NCBI GenBank assembly: GCA_963761305.1
Contig: CAVXGK010000001.1
Location: 192,001-256,000, forward strand
DNA: 64,000 nucleotides
Source: an uncultured Gemmatimonadaceae bacterium
GTDB taxonomy: Bacteria; Gemmatimonadota; Gemmatimonadetes; Gemmatimonadales; Gemmatimonadaceae
Direction of reading: 5' to 3'
The notes under the pieces were generated by a model, which saw only the letters and a program-made list of their open reading frames with translations, ran no database searches and was not told where the DNA came from. The position numbers and the translations under genes are program-made. This document shows, in pieces, positions 1,152 to 13,462 of this stretch. Numbering within the stretch: the first letter of the stretch is position 1; every line of letters begins with the position of its first letter.

Positions 1152-1186
1152 GAAAAATCCCGGCCGAGGGAAGTCCGGCCGGGATT
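1152..1186 (-). terminator. Rho-independent terminator of the 1209-1745 gene
   Basis: AATCCCGGCCG...CGGCCGGGATT stem followed by a T-run on the minus strand, ~20 nt past the stop. Confidence 0.75.
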
Positions 1187-1208
1187 CAGTCAACGCAGCG
1201 CCGTGTCG

Positions 1209-1745
1209 TCAGCGCTTGATCGAGAGCCTGTTGCTGGACGGATTGAAGCGACACGTGATCGGAACGCCGTCGCGTCCGCGATGGCGCACGGTCATCGTCA
1301 CGTCCCACAGCGTGCCGCGTCGCGTCGCCGGCCCAACGGTGAGCACGTGATACCCGGGTGCCGAATTCACGAAATCCTCACAGCGGCGCTGAGCCCGCTG
1401 GTCCTGCGACTCCACTCGGCCGGCCGCACTGCCCGATCGCTCGAACCCTGGGAGATCGACGAGCCCTCGCGTCCCATCGAAGTGGCACGTGACGTCGACT
1501 TGATCGCTGCCGCGGCGCACGTGCCACGGAAAGGAATAGACAGTTCCGGTGAGCGACTCGCGGTCGCGACGGAGGATCACGTACCCGGCGCGCGCGGCCG
1601 CCGCGTTGCACGCGTCGCGTGCTCGGCCCCACGTCCCGGGTTGTTGCGCCGGCGCGCGGGCGCTCAGCAGCGCGACCGCGGTGAGCGCGGCGAACGAGAC
1701 GATGCCCAAGCGACTCCGCGGCATCGGTCGTGTTTGGTCATGCAT
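1209..1745 (-). CDS. Secreted hypothetical protein with two tandem Cys-pair domains
   Basis: GAGGTGGAG RBS, signal peptide ending APA-QQ, two similar ~60-aa units, downstream terminator. Confidence 0.7.
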   Translation of the reverse strand: MHDQTRPMPRSRLGIVSFAALTAVALLSARAPAQQPGTWGRARDACNAAAARAGYVILRRDRESLTGTVYSFPWHVRRGSDQVDVTCHFDGTRGLVDLPGFERSGSAAGRVESQDQRAQRRCEDFVNSAPGYHVLTVGPATRRGTLWDVTMTVRHRGRDGVPITCRFNPSSNRLSIKR

Positions 1746-1923
1746 GACAACTCCACCTCATCAAAAAGAAATCGTCGAGCGTCCGAGGCGGGGAGAGGGG
1801 GATCGCGTATGTGTTCGTTGGCCTTAAGGGCACGATCCGCGCCGCGCGTCGTGTGATGTACGTCGCAGTCGTGTAGGCGGCGATAGCGAACGGGACATCA
1901 TCAGAAAACGGCTCACGACAGGC

Positions 1924-2316
1924 TGTTCGCGCCACGCGCAACACGCGGTGATAGCCGCGCGCCGAAAGGTTGAGCGTTTCCATGGCCGACGTGACGAGCT
2001 CGCGCGCCGCCGGCGCGATCGCGCCATGCGAAAGCAGCCAGCGCCCCGAGGCGTGCGCGTTGCACCGCACGCCGGGCAAGCGTGCAAACCGGCGGCGCTG
2101 AATCGCTCGGCTCTGCTCGACTCGGGCTCGAATCGTCGTCGACGGCTCGCCGTCACTGGCGCGCTGCATCGCCGAGGGCGCGACCGCGCTCAGCGTGACA
2201 TGCATGTCGATACGGTCGGCAAGCGGACCCGACAGACGGCCGCGATAGCGAACGATCTCGCCTTCGGAACACGTGCACACGCGCGTCGGCTCGCCGGCAT
2301 TGCCGCACGGACAGGG
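1924..2316 (-). pseudogene. comM: Displaced 3' fragment of comM/yifB (Mg-chelatase-like AAA+ ATPase)
   Basis: Translates PCPCG...LSGPLADRIDMHV...LSARGYHRVLRVART, colinear with the C-terminal third of 7879-9417; lacks the 5' two-thirds and the last ~35 codons. Confidence 0.9.
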
Positions 2317-2767
2317 TTTCGTTGCCCATCTACGATGGCGGTTAACCGCGCCGAAGCCCATTTCAGGCTACCCGCGCGAGCTCCGGCATGTTGGCGACCA
2401 CCTGCTTAGACGGCGGCTCGACTTGGGTCTTGATCAGAAACAGGCCGCCAAGCGTCTTGGAACGGGAGCCTGGAACCTCCGAAACTGGGAGACCGGCCGG
2501 CATGGTATTCAGCCGTGGTTCTATCCCGCCATCATTGGCTTCCTCGGCTACAATCCGCTTCCGGAGTCCACGACCCGGGGGAACGCCATCCGTCGAGAGC
2601 GCCTGAGTCGCGGCTGGTCGCGAAGCCGCTTAGCGATCGAGGCGGCCGTTGATGAAGGCACGGTACGCCGGCTCGAGGAGGACGCCCTGCGCGTGGCGCG
2701 GCAACCCCTCGGTCGCGTCATCCGGGCACTCCATCTGACGCCCGAGCGTGTGCCCCGGCCCGGTTAG
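2300..2767 (+). CDS. XRE-family protein with two HTH domains (start uncertain, spans the island junction)
   Basis: GDHLLRRRLDLGLDQKQAAKRLG...NWETG and GNAIRRERLSRGWSRSRLA...VRRLEE HTH_3-like motifs. Confidence 0.7.
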   Translation: MPHGQGFVAHLRWRLTAPKPISGYPRELRHVGDHLLRRRLDLGLDQKQAAKRLGTGAWNLRNWETGRHGIQPWFYPAIIGFLGYNPLPESTTRGNAIRRERLSRGWSRSRLAIEAAVDEGTVRRLEEDALRVARQPLGRVIRALHLTPERVPRPG

Positions 2768-2873
2768 TCATCTATCGCTCGAATCACGTCACGGGCGTTT
2801 CATTCGCCTGAACTGGGAAAACTCGATTCCGGCCACGGTAACGAGGCATGCGCTCACGTGTTTCCCCTCAGCG

Positions 2874-4967
2874 TCAAAACGCGGCGTGCAAGCGTATGGC
2901 GTAGATCGAGACCGGTCCTCGGTCCGCGTTGTAGCCGGGGTTCACGACGAACTGATAGTCGAAGCTGAGCGCCAGCCACTTCTTGGCTCCGTACGAGTAG
3001 TAGGCTTCGCTCACCCGTTCTTCGCGGTAATTGAGCCGCCCGTCGCCGATTAAGATTCCCAACCCACCGCCAGCAAAATAGGCGCGGGCCACGGAGGACA
3101 AACCTCCAACCACCCCGCTCACACCGATATTGTCGTTTGGCCGTCGCCACGCAACGCCTTTCAGAGCGCTGCCGAGCGAGAGGCTCTCGCTACAGTCGGT
3201 CCCGCCCAAGATTTCGTCCCGCCCGGGACTCCAACTCGCACGAGAAAACACGCCGAGATCCCGAGTGATTGCCTGCTCGGCGTTGACCACGATGCCGGGA
3301 TTGGTTCGCACCTCGCGCGTCAAGGTGATGTCGGGATAATTGGGCGAAGTGACCGGGAGCGCCACGGCGTCGGCATAGCCGCCCATCGTGCCGTGGTTCA
3401 CCCACCCGAACACGCGGAGTTTGCCCGGCTGCGAGACGAGCGAATACCGCCACTCCCATTCCGCTGCATACTCACCGCGCTCGGGGATGTGAAGGTCAAA
3501 CACGTTGTTGCTGGACACGATGGGCAGGAGGAAATAGCCGACACGGAAAGCCCAGCTCTGCTTGTTAAGCTCCGCCAGAGCGCCATACGTCCAGCTGATT
3601 TGGTCCATGGTCCAGTCGTAGGCGCCTGCGCCGTAGATATTCCAGTTGAGGAAGTTGGTTCGTGGATCATTCGCATAGGTGTTGACATCGAAGTAGTCCG
3701 TGACGGCGAGCCTTCCGGCGGCGACGGTGATCCGTGAGATGTCTTGTGCCCCAGCGAGTTGATTGGGGCCGTCCTCGACTGTTTCTTTGTCACCGCCGAG
3801 ACCAAATGTTTGGCGCAGAATGAGGCGATCGACGACGAACCGCGGCGCCGGAAACTCTGCCTTTTGAGCCTCTCCGTTAGGGAAGGCGGATACCCCATGG
3901 GTCGCATTGAGACCGTATCCCTGGTCGATCTCCGGGTTGAAATACGCCTGACCACCGGTCCACAATTGCACGCCCAGAAATGCGGTCGCGCTCACCGTGT
4001 TTTTCACCTGACTGGCGCCAGACAGGCTGTTCGTTCCCTCGTACGGTGACCGGAAGGCGAAATACCCCTGTTCGATGAACGTTTCTTGGCCGTGGATATT
4101 CCATCGGGCGCTGTCGATGGCTAGGGCATGGCTAGTGTCGCGGACGGGCGCGTACACGCCTGGCCAACTGAGGGATCGACGGAGTCCGAGCCGGAGGCTG
4201 TGCGCGGTCAGTCTTGACTCAAGGCCGGTCCCGGACGGGAAGACGACGCCTCGTTGTCCAAGTCGGTTGAAGAGATACTCGACACGCGCAGCCCAGCTCG
4301 GTGCGATCGCCAGCTCTGCACCTGCCCCGACATCCCAACCCGTGCGCCAGCGCAGCAGTGTGTCGGGATGGCTGCTCGAGACGGGGGTTTCAATAAAGCG
4401 CATTTGCGACGGAGCGAACCCGCCGGTTCCGTAGAACAGCCAGCGATCCGAGACATAGCCGAAGCGGCCGCGCAGCGTTGAGACAAAGTCGAGCTTTTCG
4501 GTGACGGTGCTGCCGTGGGCCGCTGTCCCGGATGCGACCGTTCCATCCTCGAAGAAGTGAGGGAACGAGACGTCGGCCTCGGTGCCGAGAAGAAGCCGCG
4601 AAGACAGCACGCGATTGTATCCGAGGAATGCACCGGCGTCGAGGCTGCCGAACCCATGGCTCGACCACATCGGTCTGGAATCGGAGAGCGTCACGGTGGC
4701 GCTGCCAGGACGGTAGCCGACATGGCCGCCGGCGTACCATCCGCTCCACTCACGGCTGGCGTCGGCGGTCGCATGAACGGGCAGCTGGGCGTCGACGTCG
4801 CCAGCCCGCGTGGCAGCAAGCGCCACGATCGCCGCGGGGACGAGAAGGCCGATCGTCGGATGTCGACGCTTCGTGGTTCGAGACGCCAATGGCGTGGCCC
4901 AAGCAGCGGCGGGCGTGCGGGCGAGCCCCCTGATGCGACCACTTGCGCGAGGAAAATTTCCTTCCAT
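2874..4967 (-). CDS. MnoP-like high-affinity Mn2+ porin (N-terminal small OMP beta-barrel + OprB carbohydrate-porin domain)
   Basis: WSGWYAGGHVGY...RGRFGY...WAARVEY Omp25-like barrel; NPEIDQGYGL...FPNGEAQK, YANDPRTNFLNW, NPGYNADRGPV motifs; C-terminal Phe; divergent from mntH. Confidence 0.8.
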   Translation of the reverse strand: MEGNFPRASGRIRGLARTPAAAWATPLASRTTKRRHPTIGLLVPAAIVALAATRAGDVDAQLPVHATADASREWSGWYAGGHVGYRPGSATVTLSDSRPMWSSHGFGSLDAGAFLGYNRVLSSRLLLGTEADVSFPHFFEDGTVASGTAAHGSTVTEKLDFVSTLRGRFGYVSDRWLFYGTGGFAPSQMRFIETPVSSSHPDTLLRWRTGWDVGAGAELAIAPSWAARVEYLFNRLGQRGVVFPSGTGLESRLTAHSLRLGLRRSLSWPGVYAPVRDTSHALAIDSARWNIHGQETFIEQGYFAFRSPYEGTNSLSGASQVKNTVSATAFLGVQLWTGGQAYFNPEIDQGYGLNATHGVSAFPNGEAQKAEFPAPRFVVDRLILRQTFGLGGDKETVEDGPNQLAGAQDISRITVAAGRLAVTDYFDVNTYANDPRTNFLNWNIYGAGAYDWTMDQISWTYGALAELNKQSWAFRVGYFLLPIVSSNNVFDLHIPERGEYAAEWEWRYSLVSQPGKLRVFGWVNHGTMGGYADAVALPVTSPNYPDITLTREVRTNPGIVVNAEQAITRDLGVFSRASWSPGRDEILGGTDCSESLSLGSALKGVAWRRPNDNIGVSGVVGGLSSVARAYFAGGGLGILIGDGRLNYREERVSEAYYSYGAKKWLALSFDYQFVVNPGYNADRGPVSIYAIRLHAAF

Positions 4968-4979
4968 CTCACAACGTAG

Positions 4980-4993
4980 TTAGGTATGCCTAA
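4980..4993. promoter_or_regulatory. DtxR/MntR-type operator TTAGGTATGCCTAA
   Basis: TTAGG-N4-CCTAA palindrome 13 nt upstream of the porin start; cognate DtxR-family regulator in the same island. Confidence 0.75.
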
Positions 4994-5089
4994 TAAATTG
5001 ACTAGACGAAGCTAGTAACGATCGACCCCGGCGGGCAAGGAGCTCGACGCGGAGCTGCTGATGGACGGCTGGAGGCCAACGGTGGTCCG

Positions 5090-5117
5090 TTGCTTATTTT
5101 TTTTATCCACCTAACTT
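5090..5117 (+). promoter_or_regulatory. Putative sigma70 promoter of mntH (TTGCTT-16-TAACTT) overlapped by degenerate MntR box TTTTATCCACCTAA
   Basis: AT-rich patch ~50 nt upstream of the mntH ATG; CCTAA half-site at 5110-5114. Confidence 0.55.
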
Positions 5118-5165
5118 TGTGGTTACCGTGGCCGCAATTTTATTGCGATCATTTCCGATCGCGAG

Positions 5166-6551
5166 ATGACCAACCCTATCCGCTCGCTCAAAGGCGAGGG
5201 GCCGACTGACGCACCACCGCAACCGGTCGGCAGTCACGACATCGGTTGGCGACGAGCGCGCGCCGCCCCCAGCCTGTCGGAGGTCTACCGGTCAGTTCCG
5301 GTCACGGGCCTGAGATGGTGGCGTCGCGCGCTCGCCTTCGCGGGGCCCGGCTATCTCATTGCTGTCGGTTATATGGACCCGGGTAACTGGGCCACCAGCC
5401 TCGCCGGCGGGTCGGCGTACGGCTACACGCTCTTGAGCGTCATCATGATCTCCAACCTGCTTGCGATCCTGCTCCAGGCGCTGGCGGTCAAGCTGGGGAT
5501 CGCTACGGGGCGTGACCTCGCGCAAGCGGTTCGGGATCACTATTCGCCCAGAGCCGTCATTTTCCATTGGATCATCTGCGAGATCGCGATCGCGGCCTGC
5601 GATCTCGCCGAGGTGATCGGCTCGGCCATCGCGCTCAACTTGCTTTTTCACATCCCGCTGGCATTCGGCGTCCTGCTGACGGGATTGGACGTCCTCATCG
5701 TACTGGCGCTCCAGAGCCGAGGGTTTCGGCTCCTCGAGGCGCTCGTGATCACGCTCATCGCGACCATCTCGGCGTGCTTTCTCTTCGAGCTCATCCTGGC
5801 CCGTCCGGACATCGGGCCGATGCTGCGGGCCTTCGTCCCCGCCACGGAAATCGTCAAGAACCGCCAGATGCTCTATATCGCGATGGGCATCCTCGGCGCG
5901 ACCGTGATGCCTCACAACCTGTATCTGCATTCCTCGATCGTGCAGACGCGCCGGTATGAGGAAACGAGCAGTGGCAAGCGAGAGGCGATTCGCTGGGCGA
6001 TCTTCGACTCCTCGCTCGCGCTGATGCTGGCGCTCTTCATCAATGGCGCGATCCTCGTCATGGCTGCCGCAGTGTTCTACCGCAGTGGGCACCACGACGT
6101 CGCAGAAATCCAGGATGCCTACAAACTCCTCACGCCATTGTTGGGCAGCACGGGGGCGAGCCTCGCCTTTGTGGTCGCGCTCCTCGCGTCCGGGCAGAAC
6201 TCGACCCTGACCGGGACGCTCGCCGGACAGATCACCATGGAGGGATTTCTCAATATCCGACTCCGCCCGTGGCTTCGCCGATTGATCACGCGCGGGCTGG
6301 CCATCACCCCGGCGATCATCGTCACCTTCGTGTACGGAGAGCACGGAACGGCCAAGCTCCTCATCCTGAGTCAGGTCATTCTCAGTATGCAGCTGTCATT
6401 CGCCGTGTTCCCGCTGGTCAAGTTCACCTCGGAGAGGGCGAAGATGGGCGAGTTCGTGAACTCGCGCTGGCTCACGTGGCTGTCGTGGACGGTTGCCTAT
6501 CTCATCGCGGCTTTGAATGTTTGGCTCCTGACGCAACTCTTGCTTACCTGA
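5166..6551 (+). CDS. mntH: NRAMP-family Mn2+ transporter
   Basis: GYMDPGNW and [10 protein letters not shown] signatures, many TM helices. Confidence 0.97.
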
Positions 6552-6566
6552 TTGGCCCGCTCCCGC

Positions 6567-7073
6567 ATGTACTCGCGTATTCTCGTCCCTCTCGAACATT
6601 CGCCGGCCGACGCAAGCATCCTCGCGCATGTGCGGAAGCTCGCGCGACACTGCAAAGCGTCGGTCGTCCTCATCCATGTTGCCGACGGCTGGGCGGCGCG
6701 GAACGCGCTCGCCCTCAATCTCCGCGAGTCCGAAGAAATCCGCGACGATCGCGCGTACCTCGAGGAGCGACGCGCCGAGCTCGAGGCGGCCGGGATCGAC
6801 ACGGACGCTGTGCTGGCGCGAGGTGATCCGGCGTCGGAAATCGATCTCGCGGCGCGGCGCGAGGGCGCCGATCTCATCGCCATGGCAACTCATGGACATG
6901 GGTTCTTGAATGACATCGTGCGCGGCACCGTGGCCAACGCGGTTCGGCATCGGTCGCTCGTTCCTGTGCTCCTCGTTCGCTCGATTGGCGTATCGGAACC
7001 AGTACGCGCGCTTGATGCACCGGATCGTACCGCCAAGCTGCCGTCTCCCATCTCATCCGAGGACCATTCGTGA
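6567..7073 (+). CDS. Universal stress protein
   Basis: MYSRILVPL...ADLIAMATHGH...GTVANAVRH...VPVLLVR USP motifs. Confidence 0.9.
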   Translation: MYSRILVPLEHSPADASILAHVRKLARHCKASVVLIHVADGWAARNALALNLRESEEIRDDRAYLEERRAELEAAGIDTDAVLARGDPASEIDLAARREGADLIAMATHGHGFLNDIVRGTVANAVRHRSLVPVLLVRSIGVSEPVRALDAPDRTAKLPSPISSEDHS

Positions 7074-7825
7074 CTCCCGCCCGTTCACGACAAAAACCGG
7101 ACGCGAGAGTGGCGCGGCGCGCGGCAACGCGGCGCGGGCCTTCCCCTGCCGACGTGGGTGATCTCACCGGACCAGTCGAGGACTATCTCAAGGCGATTTA
7201 CCAACGCGAACGCAGCGGCGAGCCAGCGGCCACGAATGATCTCGCGATAGATCTGGGTGTCGCGCCGGCCTCGGTTACGGGAATGGTACGTCGGCTAGCG
7301 GAACAGGGGCTGCTCATATACGAACGCTATCGCGGCGTTCGCCTTACCACGCACGGACGGCTTGGAGCGCTACGCACAATCAGGCGCCATCGCGTGATCG
7401 AGGCATACCTTGTCAAGGCGCTCGGATACCGATGGGATGAGGTACACGATGAGGCCGAGCGCCTGGAACATGCGGCATCCAACGATCTGATCGATCGTAT
7501 GGCCGAGGCGATCGGTGAGCCGACAGTCGACCCGCACGGCGCCCCCATCCCGAGCCGCGAAGGTTCGGTCGCAGAGGCGCAGTACCGAACGCTCAGGGAG
7601 CTCGAGCCAGGAATGAGTGCGGACGTGATGCAAGTGGAAGATGAGGATCCCGAGCTGCTACGGTATCTCGCCGAGCTTACGATCGTGCCCGGCAGCACGG
7701 TGCGAATAGTCGAGCGGGCGCCGTTCGGCGGGCCGATTACCGTTCAGATCGATAAACGATCGCGGCAAATCGGTCCGGCCCTCGCCGAACGCATATTGGT
7801 GCGGCCACGCCGTCCCCGCTCCTGA
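7070..7825 (+). CDS. mntR: DtxR/MntR-family metal-dependent repressor with C-terminal FeoA domain
   Basis: EDYLKAIY, SVTGMVRRL, RRHRVIE, HDEAERLEH, DPHGAPIP motifs. Confidence 0.93.
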   Translation: MTPARSRQKPDARVARRAATRRGPSPADVGDLTGPVEDYLKAIYQRERSGEPAATNDLAIDLGVAPASVTGMVRRLAEQGLLIYERYRGVRLTTHGRLGALRTIRRHRVIEAYLVKALGYRWDEVHDEAERLEHAASNDLIDRMAEAIGEPTVDPHGAPIPSREGSVAEAQYRTLRELEPGMSADVMQVEDEDPELLRYLAELTIVPGSTVRIVERAPFGGPITVQIDKRSRQIGPALAERILVRPRRPRS

Positions 7826-7878
7826 TCTCTCGGCTTCCGAGCACTCGGACCGAAGCGGATTCGCTGGTTCGGTGAGAA

Positions 7879-9417
7879 CTAGCGCCGCCCGACGATCGAC
7901 AGTCCTGTTGGCGTGGGTCGATAACGTAGCGCCTCACCGAGATGTTCACGACCGACGACATCCGACAGACACAAGTCCGCAATCGTCCGCGCCACGCGAA
8001 TGACGCGGTGGTATCCGCGCGCAGACAAGTGCAGCGACTCGGCGGCGTCCATAAGTAAGCGCCGCGCGCTTGTCTCAATCGCTCCGCGCGCAAGCAGCCA
8101 ACGACCAGTTGCGTCCGCGTTGCACGTGATCCGATCCAGTGCGGCGTATCGCCGCCGCTGAATGGCACGTGCCGCCTCGACGCGTTCCCGAATCGCCGAC
8201 GACGATTCACCGGGCTCACTCGCGTCGAGCGCGGGCAACGAGACAGGAGCGAGTGTGACATACATGTCGATGCGATCCGCCAGTGGGCCCGACAAGCGTG
8301 CGCGGTATTTAGCAATCTCTGATTCTGCGCAAACGCACGGCTTTGTCGGGTGGCCGAGGTACGAGCACGGACAGGGATTCATCGCCGCGATGAGCGAGAA
8401 CCGCGCGGGGAACGCCACACTCAACGCCGCCCGCGCGATCACCACGCGCCCATCCTCGAGCGGCTGACGTAGCGCCTCGAGCGCGCCGCGCGGAAACTCG
8501 AGCAGCTCGTCGAGGAATAGTACGCCGTGATGCGCGAGACTCACTTCGCCCGGCCGCGGAATTCCACCACCGCCGACGAGTCCCGCCGACGAGATCGAGT
8601 GGTGCGGCGCGCGGAACGGCCGCGCGGCGACGAGCGCGCCTGATGCCGGCAGCAGCCCGACGACGGAATGAATCGCCGTGACCTCGAGCGCTTCGTCTTC
8701 GGTGAGCGGCGGGAGAATCGACGGCAGGCGCCGCGCGAGCATCGTCTTCCCGGCGCCCGGTGGGCCTACCAGCAAGCAGGCGTGTCCACCCGCCGCCGCT
8801 ATCTCGAGCGCGCGCTTGGCGCTCTCCTGCCCCGAGACGTCGGCGAAGTCCACGCCCTCGTCGACAGGCGCCGCTTCCATCGTCCGCTCGGCGCGTGCGA
8901 GCGATCCCGATTGCAGCGACTCGACGAGCGACGCGAGCGACTCCGCCGTGAACGTGCAGAGCGATCGCACGAGCGACGCTTCGCCGACGTTCGCCGACGG
9001 GATCACTAGACCGCGCAGCCCGACGGTGCCCGCGAGGTGACGCGCGACCGACAACACACCGCGCACCGGCCGAATCGCGCCGTCGAGGCCGAGCTCGCCG
9101 AGAACGACGAGTCCGTCGACGCTTTCAGTGGGCAGCGCACCGAGCGCGACCAGCAGTCCGATCGCGATCGGCAGGTCGAAGCCCGTTCCGGCTTTTCGCT
9201 GATCGCCCGGCGACAGACTCACGGTCACCCGTCGCGCCGGGACGACGAAACCGGAATTCGCGAGCGCGGCCGTCACCCGTTCTCGGCTCTCCTTCACCTC
9301 CCCCGACGGCAAACCCACGATCGTCCAGTGCGGAAGGCCCTGGGCGACGTCGACCTCGACGCACACATCATACGCGTCGATTCCCACGACGGCGGCGGAG
9401 CGAATGGCGGCGAGCAT
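7879..9417 (-). CDS. comM: YifB/ComM Mg-chelatase-like AAA+ ATPase (probably chimeric at the NPCPC codons)
   Basis: GLPSGEVKESRERV, GPPGAGKT Walker A, RAPHHS, LFLDELLEF, NPCPC, RVARTIADL. Confidence 0.95.
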   Translation of the reverse strand: MLAAIRSAAVVGIDAYDVCVEVDVAQGLPHWTIVGLPSGEVKESRERVTAALANSGFVVPARRVTVSLSPGDQRKAGTGFDLPIAIGLLVALGALPTESVDGLVVLGELGLDGAIRPVRGVLSVARHLAGTVGLRGLVIPSANVGEASLVRSLCTFTAESLASLVESLQSGSLARAERTMEAAPVDEGVDFADVSGQESAKRALEIAAAGGHACLLVGPPGAGKTMLARRLPSILPPLTEDEALEVTAIHSVVGLLPASGALVAARPFRAPHHSISSAGLVGGGGIPRPGEVSLAHHGVLFLDELLEFPRGALEALRQPLEDGRVVIARAALSVAFPARFSLIAAMNPCPCSYLGHPTKPCVCAESEIAKYRARLSGPLADRIDMYVTLAPVSLPALDASEPGESSSAIRERVEAARAIQRRRYAALDRITCNADATGRWLLARGAIETSARRLLMDAAESLHLSARGYHRVIRVARTIADLCLSDVVGREHLGEALRYRPTPTGLSIVGRR

Positions 9418-9499: not shown

Positions 9500-11479
9500 A
9501 TGATCATGAGCGTTCGCTCGAGAGACTCGCTTCTGGCCCTGGTCGGCGTCGTCACGCTCGCGCGCGCCGGCGGCGCACAGCGCGTGACCGGGGTCGTCCG
9601 CGACAGCGCGTCGCGCGAGCCGGTAGCGAGCGCCGTCGTGCGACTGTTCGACCCGACTGGGCGCGAGTTGGAGCGCACCATCACCGGGCGCGACGGCCGC
9701 TATCGCCTCGACGCGCTGCCGGCCGGCCGCCAGCTTCGGGTCCTTCGCATCGGGTTTCGCCCGCGCACCATTCCGTTCGCGGGAATCGCTCGCGACACGT
9801 CCCTCGACGTTGTGCTGGTCGGTCTGCCGACGCTCCTCGAAGCCGTGAACGTCGACGATCAACCGCAGTGCGGCCGTCGCTCGGATCGCGCCGCGGCGTT
9901 GGCGCTCTGGGAACAGGCGCGTGCGGCGCTCCTGGCGACCGTCGTCGCGCGCGAATCGCGGCCGCCGCTCATCACGGCTATCGCGTTCGACCGCACGCTC
10001 GATCGACGCGGCCGCATCGTCCGGCAGCACGTCCGTCACGATTCGCTGCCGACGAATCGCCCGTTCATCGCCGCGCGCCCCGTCGCCCAGTTTCGCGACC
10101 AAGGGTACACCGACGGCGTGACGAGCCAGCGTACGTACTACGCGCCGGACGCGGACGTCCTGCTCGACCCCGCGTTCGGCGACGGGCACTGCTTCTCGCT
10201 GCGCCAGGACAAGGACAAGCATCCGGGGCAGATCGGCCTCGCGTTCGATCCGGCGCGCGATCGGCCCGGCATCATCGACGTCGGCGGCGTCATGTGGCTC
10301 GACGTGGCGACGCCGGCGCTCCGCACGCTGGAATTTCGCTACACGAACGTCGAGCGCATCGTCGCCGACGCGGACGCCGGCGGGTTCATCTCGTTTCGTA
10401 CCGCGACCAACGGCCTCTCGGTGATCGATCGTTGGAATCTGCATCTCCCGTCGATCGAGACGACCGCGCCGGCTGCGCAAGGCGTTCGCCCGACGAGCGT
10501 GCCCAAGTGCACGGGAGTTTGCGTGGGGAAGGCTTCGGGCGAGGCGCGCTGGCGCGTCGTCGACATGCACGACGTCGGCGCCGTGATCGCGACCGCCACG
10601 TGGCCCGACGGTTCCGAGTGGCACTCGCCGCTTGGAACGTTCCGCGGCCGCGCGGTGCGGCCCGACAGCACGTCGCCCGTTCGCGACGCTCTCGTGTGGC
10701 TCATGGGGAGCGACGACTCGACGCGCACCGCCGCGGACGGATCGTTCGAGTTGAACCTGTTGCTTCCCGGTCCCTATCCGCTGTTCGCGGCGGAAGCGCC
10801 GGCCGATCGCGTTGTGTTCCAGCAGAACGATTCGCTGAGAGTCGAGATCGACTCCGCGGCGATGCCGCCGTTTCGACTCGTCATTGCGGCGATCGACGAT
10901 CGTATCAAGACTTTCTGCAAGGGCGTCGTCGCGGGACCGGGAAAGATTCTCATGCTCGGACGGGTGCTCCTTCCCGATCGGTCACCGGCGCGCGGCGCAG
11001 CTATCGAGGCGTTCTGGGCACAGTCGGCGTCCGATCTGGGGCACGGCTTCCGCGAGCGCGCGCGCACCGACACGTCCGGCGCGTTTCACGTCTGTGGTCT
11101 CACCCCCGACGACACCGTGCAGGTGTCGGCGACGCTCGACAGTCTCGACGCGTACGTGCGAGACCGATTCCGCGCGGACGGCGGCTCGCCGCTCTTCCAG
11201 GCCACACTCCGACTGGTCGCGCCGCCCTTCCGTTCGCGGATCATGCGTGTGGTCGACGAACGCGGCGATCCGATCGCGAACGCGTCGCTACTAGACGACG
11301 AAACGGGCGAGGTGCGCGAGACGACCAACACCAGCGGCGAAGCGAGCCTCGCGTGGCTGCCGCGCGGCAGTACGAGCGTGACGGTCGTCCGACTGGGCTA
11401 CAGTTCGACGAGCACGACCATCAACGTTGCCGCCGACGACTCGACGGTCGTAGTGGTCTCGATGCACCGCGCGCCATAG
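9500..11479 (+). CDS. Secreted protein with several carboxypeptidase-regulatory-like beta-sandwich domains
   Basis: Signal peptide; repeated motifs VTGVVRD...PVASA, TAADGSF, TDTSGAFHVCG, VVDERGDPIANA. Confidence 0.75.
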   Translation: MIMSVRSRDSLLALVGVVTLARAGGAQRVTGVVRDSASREPVASAVVRLFDPTGRELERTITGRDGRYRLDALPAGRQLRVLRIGFRPRTIPFAGIARDTSLDVVLVGLPTLLEAVNVDDQPQCGRRSDRAAALALWEQARAALLATVVARESRPPLITAIAFDRTLDRRGRIVRQHVRHDSLPTNRPFIAARPVAQFRDQGYTDGVTSQRTYYAPDADVLLDPAFGDGHCFSLRQDKDKHPGQIGLAFDPARDRPGIIDVGGVMWLDVATPALRTLEFRYTNVERIVADADAGGFISFRTATNGLSVIDRWNLHLPSIETTAPAAQGVRPTSVPKCTGVCVGKASGEARWRVVDMHDVGAVIATATWPDGSEWHSPLGTFRGRAVRPDSTSPVRDALVWLMGSDDSTRTAADGSFELNLLLPGPYPLFAAEAPADRVVFQQNDSLRVEIDSAAMPPFRLVIAAIDDRIKTFCKGVVAGPGKILMLGRVLLPDRSPARGAAIEAFWAQSASDLGHGFRERARTDTSGAFHVCGLTPDDTVQVSATLDSLDAYVRDRFRADGGSPLFQATLRLVAPPFRSRIMRVVDERGDPIANASLLDDETGEVRETTNTSGEASLAWLPRGSTSVTVVRLGYSSTSTTINVAADDSTVVVVSMHRAP

Positions 11480-11488
11480 GCTCGTATC

Positions 11489-11593
11489 GCCGGTCCACCG
11501 GTCCACCGGTCCACCGGTCCACCGCCCCCCGTCCACCCGTCCACCCGTCCACCCGTCCACCCGTCCACCCGTTCACCTGTCCACCCGCCCACC
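11489..11593. repeat. Octamer tandem repeat (CCGGTCCA/CCCGTCCA), ~12 units
   Basis: Direct reading; lies between convergent genes and overlaps the 3' end of 11573-13462. Confidence 0.9.
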
Positions 11594-13462
11594 CGGCGGC
11601 CGATCCGCGTCGACGCACACGACCTTGATCTGCTGCTGGGCGTACGTATCCATCGGATCGAGATTCTCGAGATACGGCTTCGCCATCTGCGCGAACGTGG
11701 AATCGTCGGAGTGGAGTCCGGACCGCGCAATCGGCAGCACGTCGGTCGCCATTCGAACCAGCCGGCAGCTCTCGACCTTGTCGGTGAGCTTCATGGTTTG
11801 CTGCAGCGCCGTCTGCGCGACAGCCAGCGCCGCGGCTCCGACGAGGAAACGCGATTGGCCGGACGTCTGCACTGAATCCGAGAACGCGAGCATCCGAAGC
11901 GCCGTCGCGAAATCGGCGGTCGCCTTGGTCCCACTGGCCGCGGCCTGATAGAGCGTGTTGCCCTTCGCCGCCGCGAACATCGCGACCATCGACGAGTCTT
12001 CGCCGCTCGCCAAGCCCGCATGCAGCGCGACCAGCGCGCTGTCCGGTTGGCCCAGTTCGATCTCGAATTGCGCGATCCGAAGGTGCCCCTGTCCACGCGC
12101 GAGCCCCGAATCCAACGCCACCGCCTGCTTCGCCGCCGCCAGCGCCTCGGCGACTTTCCCGCGGGCGCGCAGCTCCGTGGCGTTGAGCGACAGGAGATCG
12201 GCGTTCTGTGGAAAGAGCGCGAGCCCTCGCGGAAGAACCGTGTCCGCCTCGGCCTTGATGTACTGCGTGTACAACCAGTACAGGCGAGCGTCCTTGGGAA
12301 ACACGCTCACGCCGTGGGCCAGCGTCTCGATGGACTTGATCGGATTGTTCGCCGAGTGATAGGCGAAACCCAGCCGATAAAAGAACAGTGAATCGCGCCG
12401 GCTGACCGAATCCTGCGCGAGGAGCGTCTCGCCGGCGGCGATGGCCAGCGGCCAATGCTTGTTCTCGAACGCCGCGCGCCATTTCTCCAGCACGAAGCGA
12501 ATGTCGTCGGGATGCGCGTTGCTCAGCGCGATGAGGTATGGCTCGGCGCGCGCCGCGTTGCCGCCGTCGAGAAGCGCGTAGCCGACGCGCGCCGCGAGGT
12601 CGAGGTCCGCGGTGTCGGTGGCGGCCAGTCGGAGCCAGTACGTCGCCGCCCGATCGCGACGGCGCAACGAGTCGAGCGACACCGCCGCGGCCTCGAGCCC
12701 ATGCGGGTTGATCGAGTCGATGGCGAGCAGCGTGTCGGCTTCGGCGAGGACCTCCGCCGCCGGCGCGCCGTTCTGACGCAGCGCCCACACGAGGCACGTT
12801 CGGACGATCGCGCCGCGCGGAAAGGCCGCGATTCCCGCACGAGCGGCCTCCACCGCGCGCAGACCACTTCCCTCGCGAAGCGCGTTCTCGCAGCGGCGTT
12901 CCGGTCCAAGCTGCGCGCGGGCGGCGGTCACTGATCGCGCGAATATCTGCGCGGCCGAGTCGAGCTTCGGCGCCGCCGCATCCGGCAACGGCTGACGCAG
13001 CCGATCGTCGCGCATCAGCATGAGCGAACCGGACAGGCGTGGGCCGGACGGTCCGTTGGTCACCGAGGCCAGCACGAACTCGTCGGCGCGGAAATACTTG
13101 CCCATCGATCTGATGTCCCGCAGCTCGAAGGTCGTGTCGGGGTTGAACCCCGCGCGCTCCATGCGGTACGCCACGTCGTCGGCGTCGATGACGTCGACCT
13201 CCTTCCGATCGATGAGGTGCCACACGCGCGACCGCACGGCGTCCGCCGCCTTGCGGCCGAGCTTCATGTCAGCCCCGCCACGCGGGAAGAAGTTGAGGAT
13301 GAGGAGACCTTGTCGCGTGAACTCCTGCTGCGGGGTCTCTTTCTTCGCTCGCTGGGCGCCTGCCGAAAACCCCGCGAGAACGAGCATGCCCGTCGCACCC
13401 GCAACCATGAATCGCATGGTGGCGCACGGAATCATCCGGCGAGTTTGGTCGGAGTTCGGCAC
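11573..13462 (-). CDS. Exported TPR-repeat protein
   Basis: Signal peptide (AGA-Q), Ala/Leu-rich helical repeats (YRLGFAYH, LRIAQFEIELGQPDSA); start may be a later Met. Confidence 0.75.
   Translation of the reverse strand: MPNSDQTRRMIPCATMRFMVAGATGMLVLAGFSAGAQRAKKETPQQEFTRQGLLILNFFPRGGADMKLGRKAADAVRSRVWHLIDRKEVDVIDADDVAYRMERAGFNPDTTFELRDIRSMGKYFRADEFVLASVTNGPSGPRLSGSLMLMRDDRLRQPLPDAAAPKLDSAAQIFARSVTAARAQLGPERRCENALREGSGLRAVEAARAGIAAFPRGAIVRTCLVWALRQNGAPAAEVLAEADTLLAIDSINPHGLEAAAVSLDSLRRRDRAATYWLRLAATDTADLDLAARVGYALLDGGNAARAEPYLIALSNAHPDDIRFVLEKWRAAFENKHWPLAIAAGETLLAQDSVSRRDSLFFYRLGFAYHSANNPIKSIETLAHGVSVFPKDARLYWLYTQYIKAEADTVLPRGLALFPQNADLLSLNATELRARGKVAEALAAAKQAVALDSGLARGQGHLRIAQFEIELGQPDSALVALHAGLASGEDSSMVAMFAAAKGNTLYQAAASGTKATADFATALRMLAFSDSVQTSGQSRFLVGAAALAVAQTALQQTMKLTDKVESCRLVRMATDVLPIARSGLHSDDSTFAQMAKPYLENLDPMDTYAQQQIKVVCVDADRPPGGRVDR

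Follow-up and report, generated by a model that had tools for sequence, protein, structure and literature searches.

The locus described here raises the question of how comM can carry an inserted DNA unit that holds no integrase and still read as a whole gene. We analyzed a 64,000-nt stretch of an uncultured Gemmatimonadaceae genome (assembly GCA_963761305.1, contig CAVXGK010000001.1, positions 192,001 to 256,000), called the window below; coordinates are window positions. The comM/yifB gene occupies 7879-9417 on the minus strand as one frame of 512 aa (TIGR00368 (YifB), 543 bits against a cut-off of 362), and a second copy of its 3' part lies detached on the far side of a 6-kb unit. The unit is an integrase-less cassette inserted at the TG of the NPCPC motif; a helper element with a large serine recombinase (LSR) that targets comM probably brought it in cis and has since been excised, leaving comM chimeric.

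An exact 12-bp repeat was found at 2305-2316 and 8365-8376, offset by 6060 bp, and the two comM copies align without a gap at that offset. The repeat is the longest exact in-register run common to the copies (the next are 11 and 10 bp), which share 61% protein identity over 131 aa. At the right junction (2305-2329), which includes the first repeat copy, a GGCAACG arm stands 6 nt from a TG at 2312-2313. This arm and its spacing match the attachment site attP in intact LSR genes (L097 and L268) and the attR of an autonomous element (G444), and the arm is the same over 13 nt as that of junctions in G015, G019 and G348. At the left junction (8365-8376), the crossover dinucleotide is 8372-8373, the TG on the comM strand in the first Cys codon of NPCPC; its position matches the LSR attL junctions of G444 and G640, and junction comparison found no recombinase arm of the GGCAACG type at this end. 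Because the arm and spacing occur only at the right end, we assign that end as a standard attR with a 2-bp TG crossover and the left end as an attB rebuilt from a host 5' (B arm) and a foreign 3' (B' arm) comM allele, with the 12-bp repeat incidental. The recombination core is likely the TG dinucleotide and the repeat a by-product of the conserved PCPC codons, a point that an earlier proposal made from the letters alone did not include.

Which of the two 3' copies is native was judged from relatives with an empty site. In G005 and G017, comM is directly followed by a homologue of the window gene at 1209-1745 (minus strand, no Pfam match); homologues of this gene also lie downstream of the arrays in G015 and G019 described below. 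Window positions 1157-2320 aligned to both empty sites with no large gap at 72-73% nt identity. The detached piece (1883-2311, minus strand) was 85% and 82% identical in aa to the 3' thirds of G005 and G017, and 82-85% when the distal piece of G019 was included, while the fused piece (7879-8371, minus strand; codons 349-512 and the stop, in frame) reached only 65% and 64%. The comM 5' part (8374-9417, minus strand; codons 1-348, the source of the B arm; TIGR00368, PF01078/PF13541) was 89-91% identical in aa to G005, G017 and G015, and 90-91% to the two empty-site genomes G005 and G017. Nucleotide identity to G005/G017 fell from 88/87% at codons 329-348 to 57/60% at codons 349-368, and the detached copy showed 85/80% from codon 348. 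The GC content at third codon positions (GC3) agreed with this division: the comM 5' part had 0.82 and the detached piece 0.80, against 0.67-0.70 in the fused piece; along comM it was host-like to codon 348 (0.85, 0.90) and then fell directly to 0.65. The detached piece covers TIGR00368 profile positions 347-478 of 499. Its frame is intact to about 1924 and its tail is decayed, with a net loss of ~32 bp after RVART relative to the empty site of G005, and because of this loss it lacks the native C-terminus.

Separate trees of the comM 5' part (32 rows) and 3' part (47 rows) placed the window comM 5' part with G015, G017, G019, G005 and G024 and the detached piece in a group formed by G005, G017 and the G019 distal piece, whereas the fused piece fell in a clade (support 99), called the SYLGHPT clade, with pieces from G009, G015, G024, G018 and G013. 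An approximately unbiased (AU) test rejected a tree in which the fused piece was forced to group with the natives (p=8.4e-5), and likewise one in which the 3' end of G018 was kept with its 5' sister G014 (p=1e-12). The mis-aligned row L166, with a branch length of 10, was excluded from the AU analysis, and the unpublished genome G346 supplies one tip of the 3' tree and one of the 68 junction loci counted below, with no claim depending on it alone. In all eight members of the window's clade, GC3 was lower in the 3' part than in the 5' part. On these comparisons the detached piece is identified as native and the fused piece as foreign. The sequence-only reading had put two comM 3' copies around the 12-bp repeat, an insertion at PCPC, a native detached and a foreign fused piece, and an empty site in relatives, and each of these points was confirmed; the separate phylogenies and GC3 that it had called for are among the comparisons given above.

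Non-native 3' types are not peculiar to the window. Among the 26 same-genus genomes in the tree, 12 had the native 3' type (NAGEP/NFGEP), 13 had one of three other types and one was unclear; three of the 13 form one 5' clade and may reflect a single old swap. The helper route may have swapped this part of comM in the 13 genomes with non-native 3' thirds. By simple counting, with dS near saturation, dN/dS was 0.10-0.19 between the fused piece and the seven other clade members, 0.10-0.29 for all pairs within the clade and 0.09-0.14 among natives. The replacement third still has the four cysteines that lie past the junction, and its alignment to the solved ComM structure 8RXD reaches residue 501. 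The chimeric frame is whole and may encode a functional ComM. Since comEC and dprA are present in the genome, a working ComM could matter to this bacterium.

The far end of the unit points to the enzyme family involved. From the crossover, a plus-strand frame (2312-2767) stays open for 151 codons and encodes a double helix-turn-helix (HTH) (PF13560/PF01381) that is 40% identical in aa to residues 516-640 of the LSR L097; from the crossover as far as the HTH motif it contains no start codon in frame. Fusions of this family contain Resolvase, Recombinase and zinc-ribbon domains followed by two HTH domains. In intact LSR genes the linker is palindromic, with a GGCAACG arm on either side at a distance of 6 nt from a central CA, which corresponds to the TG of the first Cys codon of NPCPC. 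The arm consensus from 52 junctions is descriptive only, since an arm-like pattern had been used to choose those junctions. Searching with an HTH-family profile gave 163 loci, not all independent since some contigs recur. In 68 of them comM from aa ~345 stands directly behind the HTH on the opposite strand, in 16 (a script count) the HTH continues an LSR frame, and 73 were of other kinds. In the remaining six (L091, L093, L136, L179, L187 and L189, three of which are apparently one sequence), comM 5' runs into the HTH on the same strand, which is the opposite insertion orientation.

The LSR side gave the complementary picture. Among the best 120 L097 homologues listed, 82 had the HTH and 38 did not. 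Of the latter, 19 end in GF[IM]AA and 17 in DS/GS, the antisense of the comM AAMNP region in two frames; the DS/GS pattern is loose, and the DNA of L254, L256, L259 and L263 shows that tail directly. One of these proteins (P0076), 89% identical to the query LSR, ends right after such a tail. At the DNA level, 14 of 21 LSR loci lay head to head with comM 1-351, four continued into the HTH and three did neither. We therefore place the attP of this LSR family within its own gene, between a ~500-aa recombinase and the double-HTH tail, so that an integrated element reads comM5'|LSR on one side and HTH|comM3' on the opposite side, the integrated enzyme having a different C-terminus. The window HTH is such a split-off tail, the distal half alone, and as such names the enzyme family. 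Autonomous elements with both ends on one contig measured ~36 kb (G371), 43 kb (G369), 45 kb (G381) and 58 kb (G357), and one in the window's order (G444) was found on two contigs. Among seven open HTH frames of the same-genus type, pN was 0.19-0.41 and pS 0.61-0.84, pS being saturated and the values covering time spent in autonomous elements. A search for a nearer LSR-HTH fusion gave six hits among 2183 candidates, the best fusion at 45% aa, which is weak as a negative.

Two other views of the window HTH were rejected. It is not a stand-alone regulator (an 'Xre' gene), as the family occurs fused to LSRs and split at comM junctions; nor is it frameshifted, as its frame, 1 nt off the G015 type, is one of two that both occur in intact LSR genes and in other units. 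Related arrangements were seen elsewhere. Intact LSR-double-HTH genes (L097, L134, L138, L157, L268) lie on long contigs, Patescibacteria among their sources. In a second LSR clade (L088, L104 and kin) the HTH is fused through a linker that has no att motif. At L040 (G036:C92) the break in comM is at another position, ~aa 220-235, where an 11-kb insert carries a distant serine recombinase. At L075 and L081 (G013:C34, ~143-147 kb), two tandem related HTHs each abut the 3' part of another gene on the other strand, perhaps a GspE/PilB-type ATPase gene to judge from a motif, and this is possibly the same cassette logic at a second target.

Further units made up of a comM 3' piece, variable cargo and an HTH, frequently arranged in tandem, occur in Gemmatimonadota, Acidobacteriota, Bacteroidota and Verrucomicrobiota. 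Downstream of a whole comM, G015 carries three on one contig (739, 6284 and 4009 bp), G019 two (4603 and 7995 bp), G189 one (4077 bp), G348 units on two contigs (3796 bp; 3438 and 4923 bp), G358 two (7920 and 2478 bp) and L175 one (3534 bp); integrase-less units likewise follow a whole comM in G364 (Bacteroidia) and G365 (Acidobacteriota). The upstream comM of G019, G348 and G358 contains frameshifts that may be sequencing errors. No LSR was detected by tblastn at the unit loci of these eight, and none of 66 cargo open reading frames (ORFs) of related units (at least 110 aa, longest first) belonged to a recombinase or integrase family; the cargo varied from unit to unit. The comM tail was intact to the normal end of comM in nine of ten other loose pieces read and in that of G007, and decayed in that of G018. 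A donor-type junction, an HTH arm followed by the SYLGHPT allele of the window's clade, is present in G015, and this is the state in which the window's allele would travel.

A unit and an autonomous element at the same site were contiguous only in G640; in G352 and G359 they lie across contigs, and the window genome has no such pair. The G640 composite (contig C9) reads comM5'|LSR, 39 kb, HTH|comM3' and, ~5 kb further on, another HTH/comM3' that is partly deleted and has lost its junction. In G352, a single comM5'|LSR and five HTH|comM3' pieces are spread over separate contigs. The HTH was found in four of 301 genomes in the Opitutales screen from which G640 came. Some acidobacterial LSR elements (L274-L280) hold 1-4 inner HTH halves (four in G366:C41, two whole ones in G371:C57 and one in G369:C17), each preceded by a conserved ~45-bp motif instead of comM; the motif stands directly after comM 5' in L307 (G370:C196). 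This appears to be a second kind of cassette, one that leaves comM unrestored. Cargo of other units includes a Thoeris-type TIR and SLATT pair and a 1585-aa RHS-repeat protein (L175:5028-6319 and L290:4538-9292).

Using only canonical attP x attB or attL x attR reactions, we infer the order of events and the route of transfer as follows. A donor would hold comM5'|LSR...HTH1|B'x-cargo-HTH2|B'. Excision between attL and the outer attR would give a circle with the inner HTH1|B'x junction, in which HTH2 completes the LSR gene, and this composite circle would enter comM of a new host. Excision between attL and the inner attR would then remove the helper and join the host comM5' to B'x, which is the state of the window. 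The rebuilt site would again be an attB, at which helpers could re-enter and units stack in tandem. The host would select for restoration of comM, and restoration would also keep the cassette mobilisable. Such a route would explain the switch at TG and the stacking of units, and the HTH would stay open because it completes the LSR gene in the composite circle.

The sequence-only reading had described a self-healing element, and its core, an in-frame foreign 3' end supplied to the gene, stands, although the unit is better read as the leftover of a helper element. Its remark that the unit has no integrase held for the whole genome, in which no PF07508 or PF00239 match was found; a tyrosine integrase in or near the island was rejected, as the genome's two PF00589 genes lie far away. 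It had offered the choice of decayed or mobilised in trans; cis-mobilisation by an LSR helper is favoured over the trans route. It had also proposed a circle of the element's own. Under the rules published for serine integrases, the 6-kb unit would not be expected to leave in this way because its left end, which is attB-like, has no recombinase arm.

Several observations weigh against delivery by a helper. The LSR family was absent from the window genome, which is 93% complete, and from six same-genus genomes searched, and a comM-targeting LSR of the family was found in only one of 401 genomes of the phylum; PF07508 occurs in four of 31 genomes of the genus. With the family this scarce, the cognate helper of the window lineage is not in hand. 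The G640 composite does not establish in which order the events took place, and the att site at its outer junction is gone. Conservation within the genus is about the same throughout codons 289-348, so that by identity alone a crossover slightly upstream of the TG is possible. In G348, G358, G189, G640 and L175, the fused and loose pieces look closely related, as would also follow from local duplication. Finally, many intact LSR-HTH genes lie on long contigs, and the fused form is therefore not confined to free circles.

The last point would suit a free-standing satellite, the alternative nearest to the sequence-only reading, which we consider unlikely. Here the unit would form its own circle, in which the HTH arm is joined to its comM 3' allele, and an LSR acting in trans would insert it into attB, displacing the 3' end present before. 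The intact LSR-HTH genes on long contigs could supply that activity, units are as small as 739 bp (G015), and the end product and the newest-first tandem arrays would be the same. The insertion would require an attR-type site (one P arm, three B arms) to pair with attB, whereas serine integrases are reported to pair attP with attB and, when a directionality factor is present, attL with attR, and to make no other pairings (PMC3783163; this and the papers cited below are drawn on in excerpt). No circular unit was seen, seven HTH-family loci in a viral collection had no comM hit, and the 66 cargo ORFs included no replication or transfer gene.

Somewhat less likely still is repair by transformation, in which an autonomous LSR element would have broken comM and DNA of another species, taken up and recombined through 5' homology and an illegitimate joint within the element, would have mended the gene, deleted the LSR end and brought along a donor comM 3' end together with adjacent donor genes. 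This would account in one step for the loss of the LSR and the survival of the HTH|native 3' end. The genome has the transformation genes noted above, repair of comM by recombination has been raised before (PMC11472951), and identity within codons 289-348 does not fix the 5' breakpoint. The sharp fall of GC3 after codon 348 argues against it, as do the foreign-allele clades, which span unrelated 5' backgrounds and also occur loose behind HTH|att junctions. Arrays of two or three units would need repeated invasion and repair, the first unit of G015 leaves only ~130 bp from comM to the HTH, and rescue in Acinetobacter was not above chance in the excerpted text (PMC11472951).

The attR region might also have been duplicated locally in tandem, the helper then excised and the copies left to diverge on the spot over a long time, in which case the 3' allele would not have arrived horizontally. 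We regard this as very improbable: fused and loose pieces are indeed close in other lineages (83% nt in G640; also L175), but the fused piece of the window groups with those of G015, G024, G018, G013 and G009 and not with its own detached copy, the AU test disfavours such a tree (p=8.4e-5), and the cargo contains no copy of the local flank and was absent at comM in the 20 relative regions checked. An assembly chimera of two organisms' comM copies is hardly credible, since the genome is in two contigs with 1.2% contamination, independent genomes show the same layout, and a short-read contig (X1:3, from run X1, which may be the source sample) spans the right junction from 2259 to 2487 with 0 differences, even though the left junction was unbridged among the 25 of 44 short-read pieces listed. 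Five soil read runs hold small shares of the sequence; no RNA run was among the listed holders, and contigs of the read runs, the only form searched, showed no joint at the att sites.

Target-restoring islands are known, SXT/R391 at prfC being one. Several components of helper delivery likewise have precedents. The Mg-chelatase/ATP-dependent-protease gene family, which includes comM/yifB, is targeted by 12.4% of site-specific LSRs (Durrant et al., PMC10083194), and the Wolbachia prophage sr1WO is an LSR element at a gene of the comM/yifB type (PMC9203015). Such elements share with the window a target inside comM/yifB, a 2-bp core and flanking gene pieces, and the right end of the unit is a hybrid att with a 2-bp core and recombinase arm as in LSR elements. 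The window unit differs in that its left end has no arm, it has no LSR (PF00239 and PF07508) and its comM frame is whole, while theirs are described as disrupted; in the same vein, comM has been read as a gene broken by mobile elements, with lowered transformation (PMC11472951; PMC10083194 supplement). In the excerpts of PMC10083194 and PMC9203015 and the supplement keyword matches, we did not find a target gene left whole, a unit lacking a recombinase or an attP that splits a double-HTH tail off an LSR, and of the four arm-motif matches in the supplement of PMC10083194, the two listed included none of this LSR family.

An att site inside the integrase gene has been described for the streptococcal rumA integrative and conjugative elements (serine) and phage Mx8 (tyrosine) (PMC4701971), as well as for the archaeal 'suicidal' integrases of SSV1 (tyrosine) and pTN3 (PMC8371274). 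In all of them the integrase gene is changed or divided upon integration, and this has been proposed to affect directionality. In the present family, unlike those, the enzyme keeps its catalytic, recombinase and zinc-ribbon domains in one piece and loses a discrete two-HTH domain, which persists as an open frame at the far end, even in units that lack an integrase. The dusA islands also supply replacement coding sequence that keeps the target in frame (Farrugia et al., PMC4482086), but there the replaced part is a short 5' end that amounts to one beta strand of DusA, and the islands bring their own tyrosine integrase, whereas the window unit replaces the 3' third of the protein, with alleles that belong to mobile clades. 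Cis-mobilizable elements (CIMEs) accrete at one site and are proposed to be excised and transferred together with an autonomous element (PMC5704250); like them, the unit has no integration or transfer genes and occurs in tandem arrays at one site. CIMEs keep attL and attR, whereas the window unit has attR and a rebuilt attB that relies on a ~155-codon replacement, inside a protein gene and with a serine recombinase. The unit thus works like a CIME but lies outside the strict definition. LSR targeting of the comM family, att sites inside serine integrase genes, short replacement ends, accretion and cis-mobilisation are already known, as far as the excerpted papers go. What we did not find in the literature searched, mostly outside subscription journals, is a description of comM-restoring integrase-less LSR cassettes, that is, the combination of an integrase-less unit, a ~155-codon replacement and the recombinase's own tail.

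Between its junctions the unit carries four genes. An outer-membrane protein with beta-barrel and OprB porin domains (PF13505, PF04966) lies at 2874-4967 on the minus strand. On the plus strand follow an extra copy of the Mn transporter MntH (NRAMP; 5166-6551; NF001923 above cut-off), a universal stress protein (6552-7073; PF00582) and an MntR/DtxR-type regulator (7070-7825; PF01325, PF02742, PF04023). A second mntH-usp-mntR set is found elsewhere in the genome, its regulator being 64% identical in aa. In all four close relatives mntH is a single copy away from comM, and the mntH copies outside the island are 71-72% identical to the island copy. The Mn genes are cargo, as had been claimed from the letters. 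A contig of run X5, from another soil study, carries the porin gene (window 3036-4915) with 82 differences over 1880 bp.

Other features of the window touch the island less directly. A tRNA-type attachment site was rejected, as the 15 loci held two tRNAs, neither of them at a comM junction. A promoter and terminator scan was at chance level (2 against 1.4 and 7 against 4.2). A dispersed repeat of ~1.1 kb occupies positions 23-1143; it includes a 41-nt inverted repeat (23-63/145-185) and, internally, 21-bp units in an array (550-906), and parts of the ~1.1-kb repeat recur at C1:494165-495008, C2:1101337-1102250, C2:2024282-2024703 and C2:148338-148701 at 68-85% identity. Intergenic runs of an 8-bp unit (GTCCACCG/GTCCACCC) lie at 11479-11604 and just left of base 1.

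It is quite conceivable, though we stop short of favouring it, that these units form a widespread, integron-like cassette system resting on a serine recombinase that splits itself, in which each unit would repair comM, rebuild the target and complete the helper integrase on leaving. The HTH, attached or detached, would then act as an integration/excision switch, the C-terminal third of ComM (zinc finger and lid) would be mobile and swapped in about half of the genus, and mobile DNA would occupy comM without ending transformation. The window points to a class of resident elements that keep comM whole, as opposed to elements that break it, such as AbaR, which reportedly disrupts comM. Because these residents keep the gene whole, screens that score comM as intact or broken would overlook the insertion as well as the chimeric make-up, and a comM tree of these groups combines two histories. 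The split LSR offers a simple model of directionality, with versus without the HTH tail, for a large recombinase family, and its compact, precisely mapped attP and attB sites may be of use for integrase tool work. The arrays, whose cargo includes Mn uptake, DsbA, an ABC permease, a protease, a kinase, Thoeris-type TIR and SLATT, and RHS genes, record successive gene gain at one site in uncultured soil bacteria.

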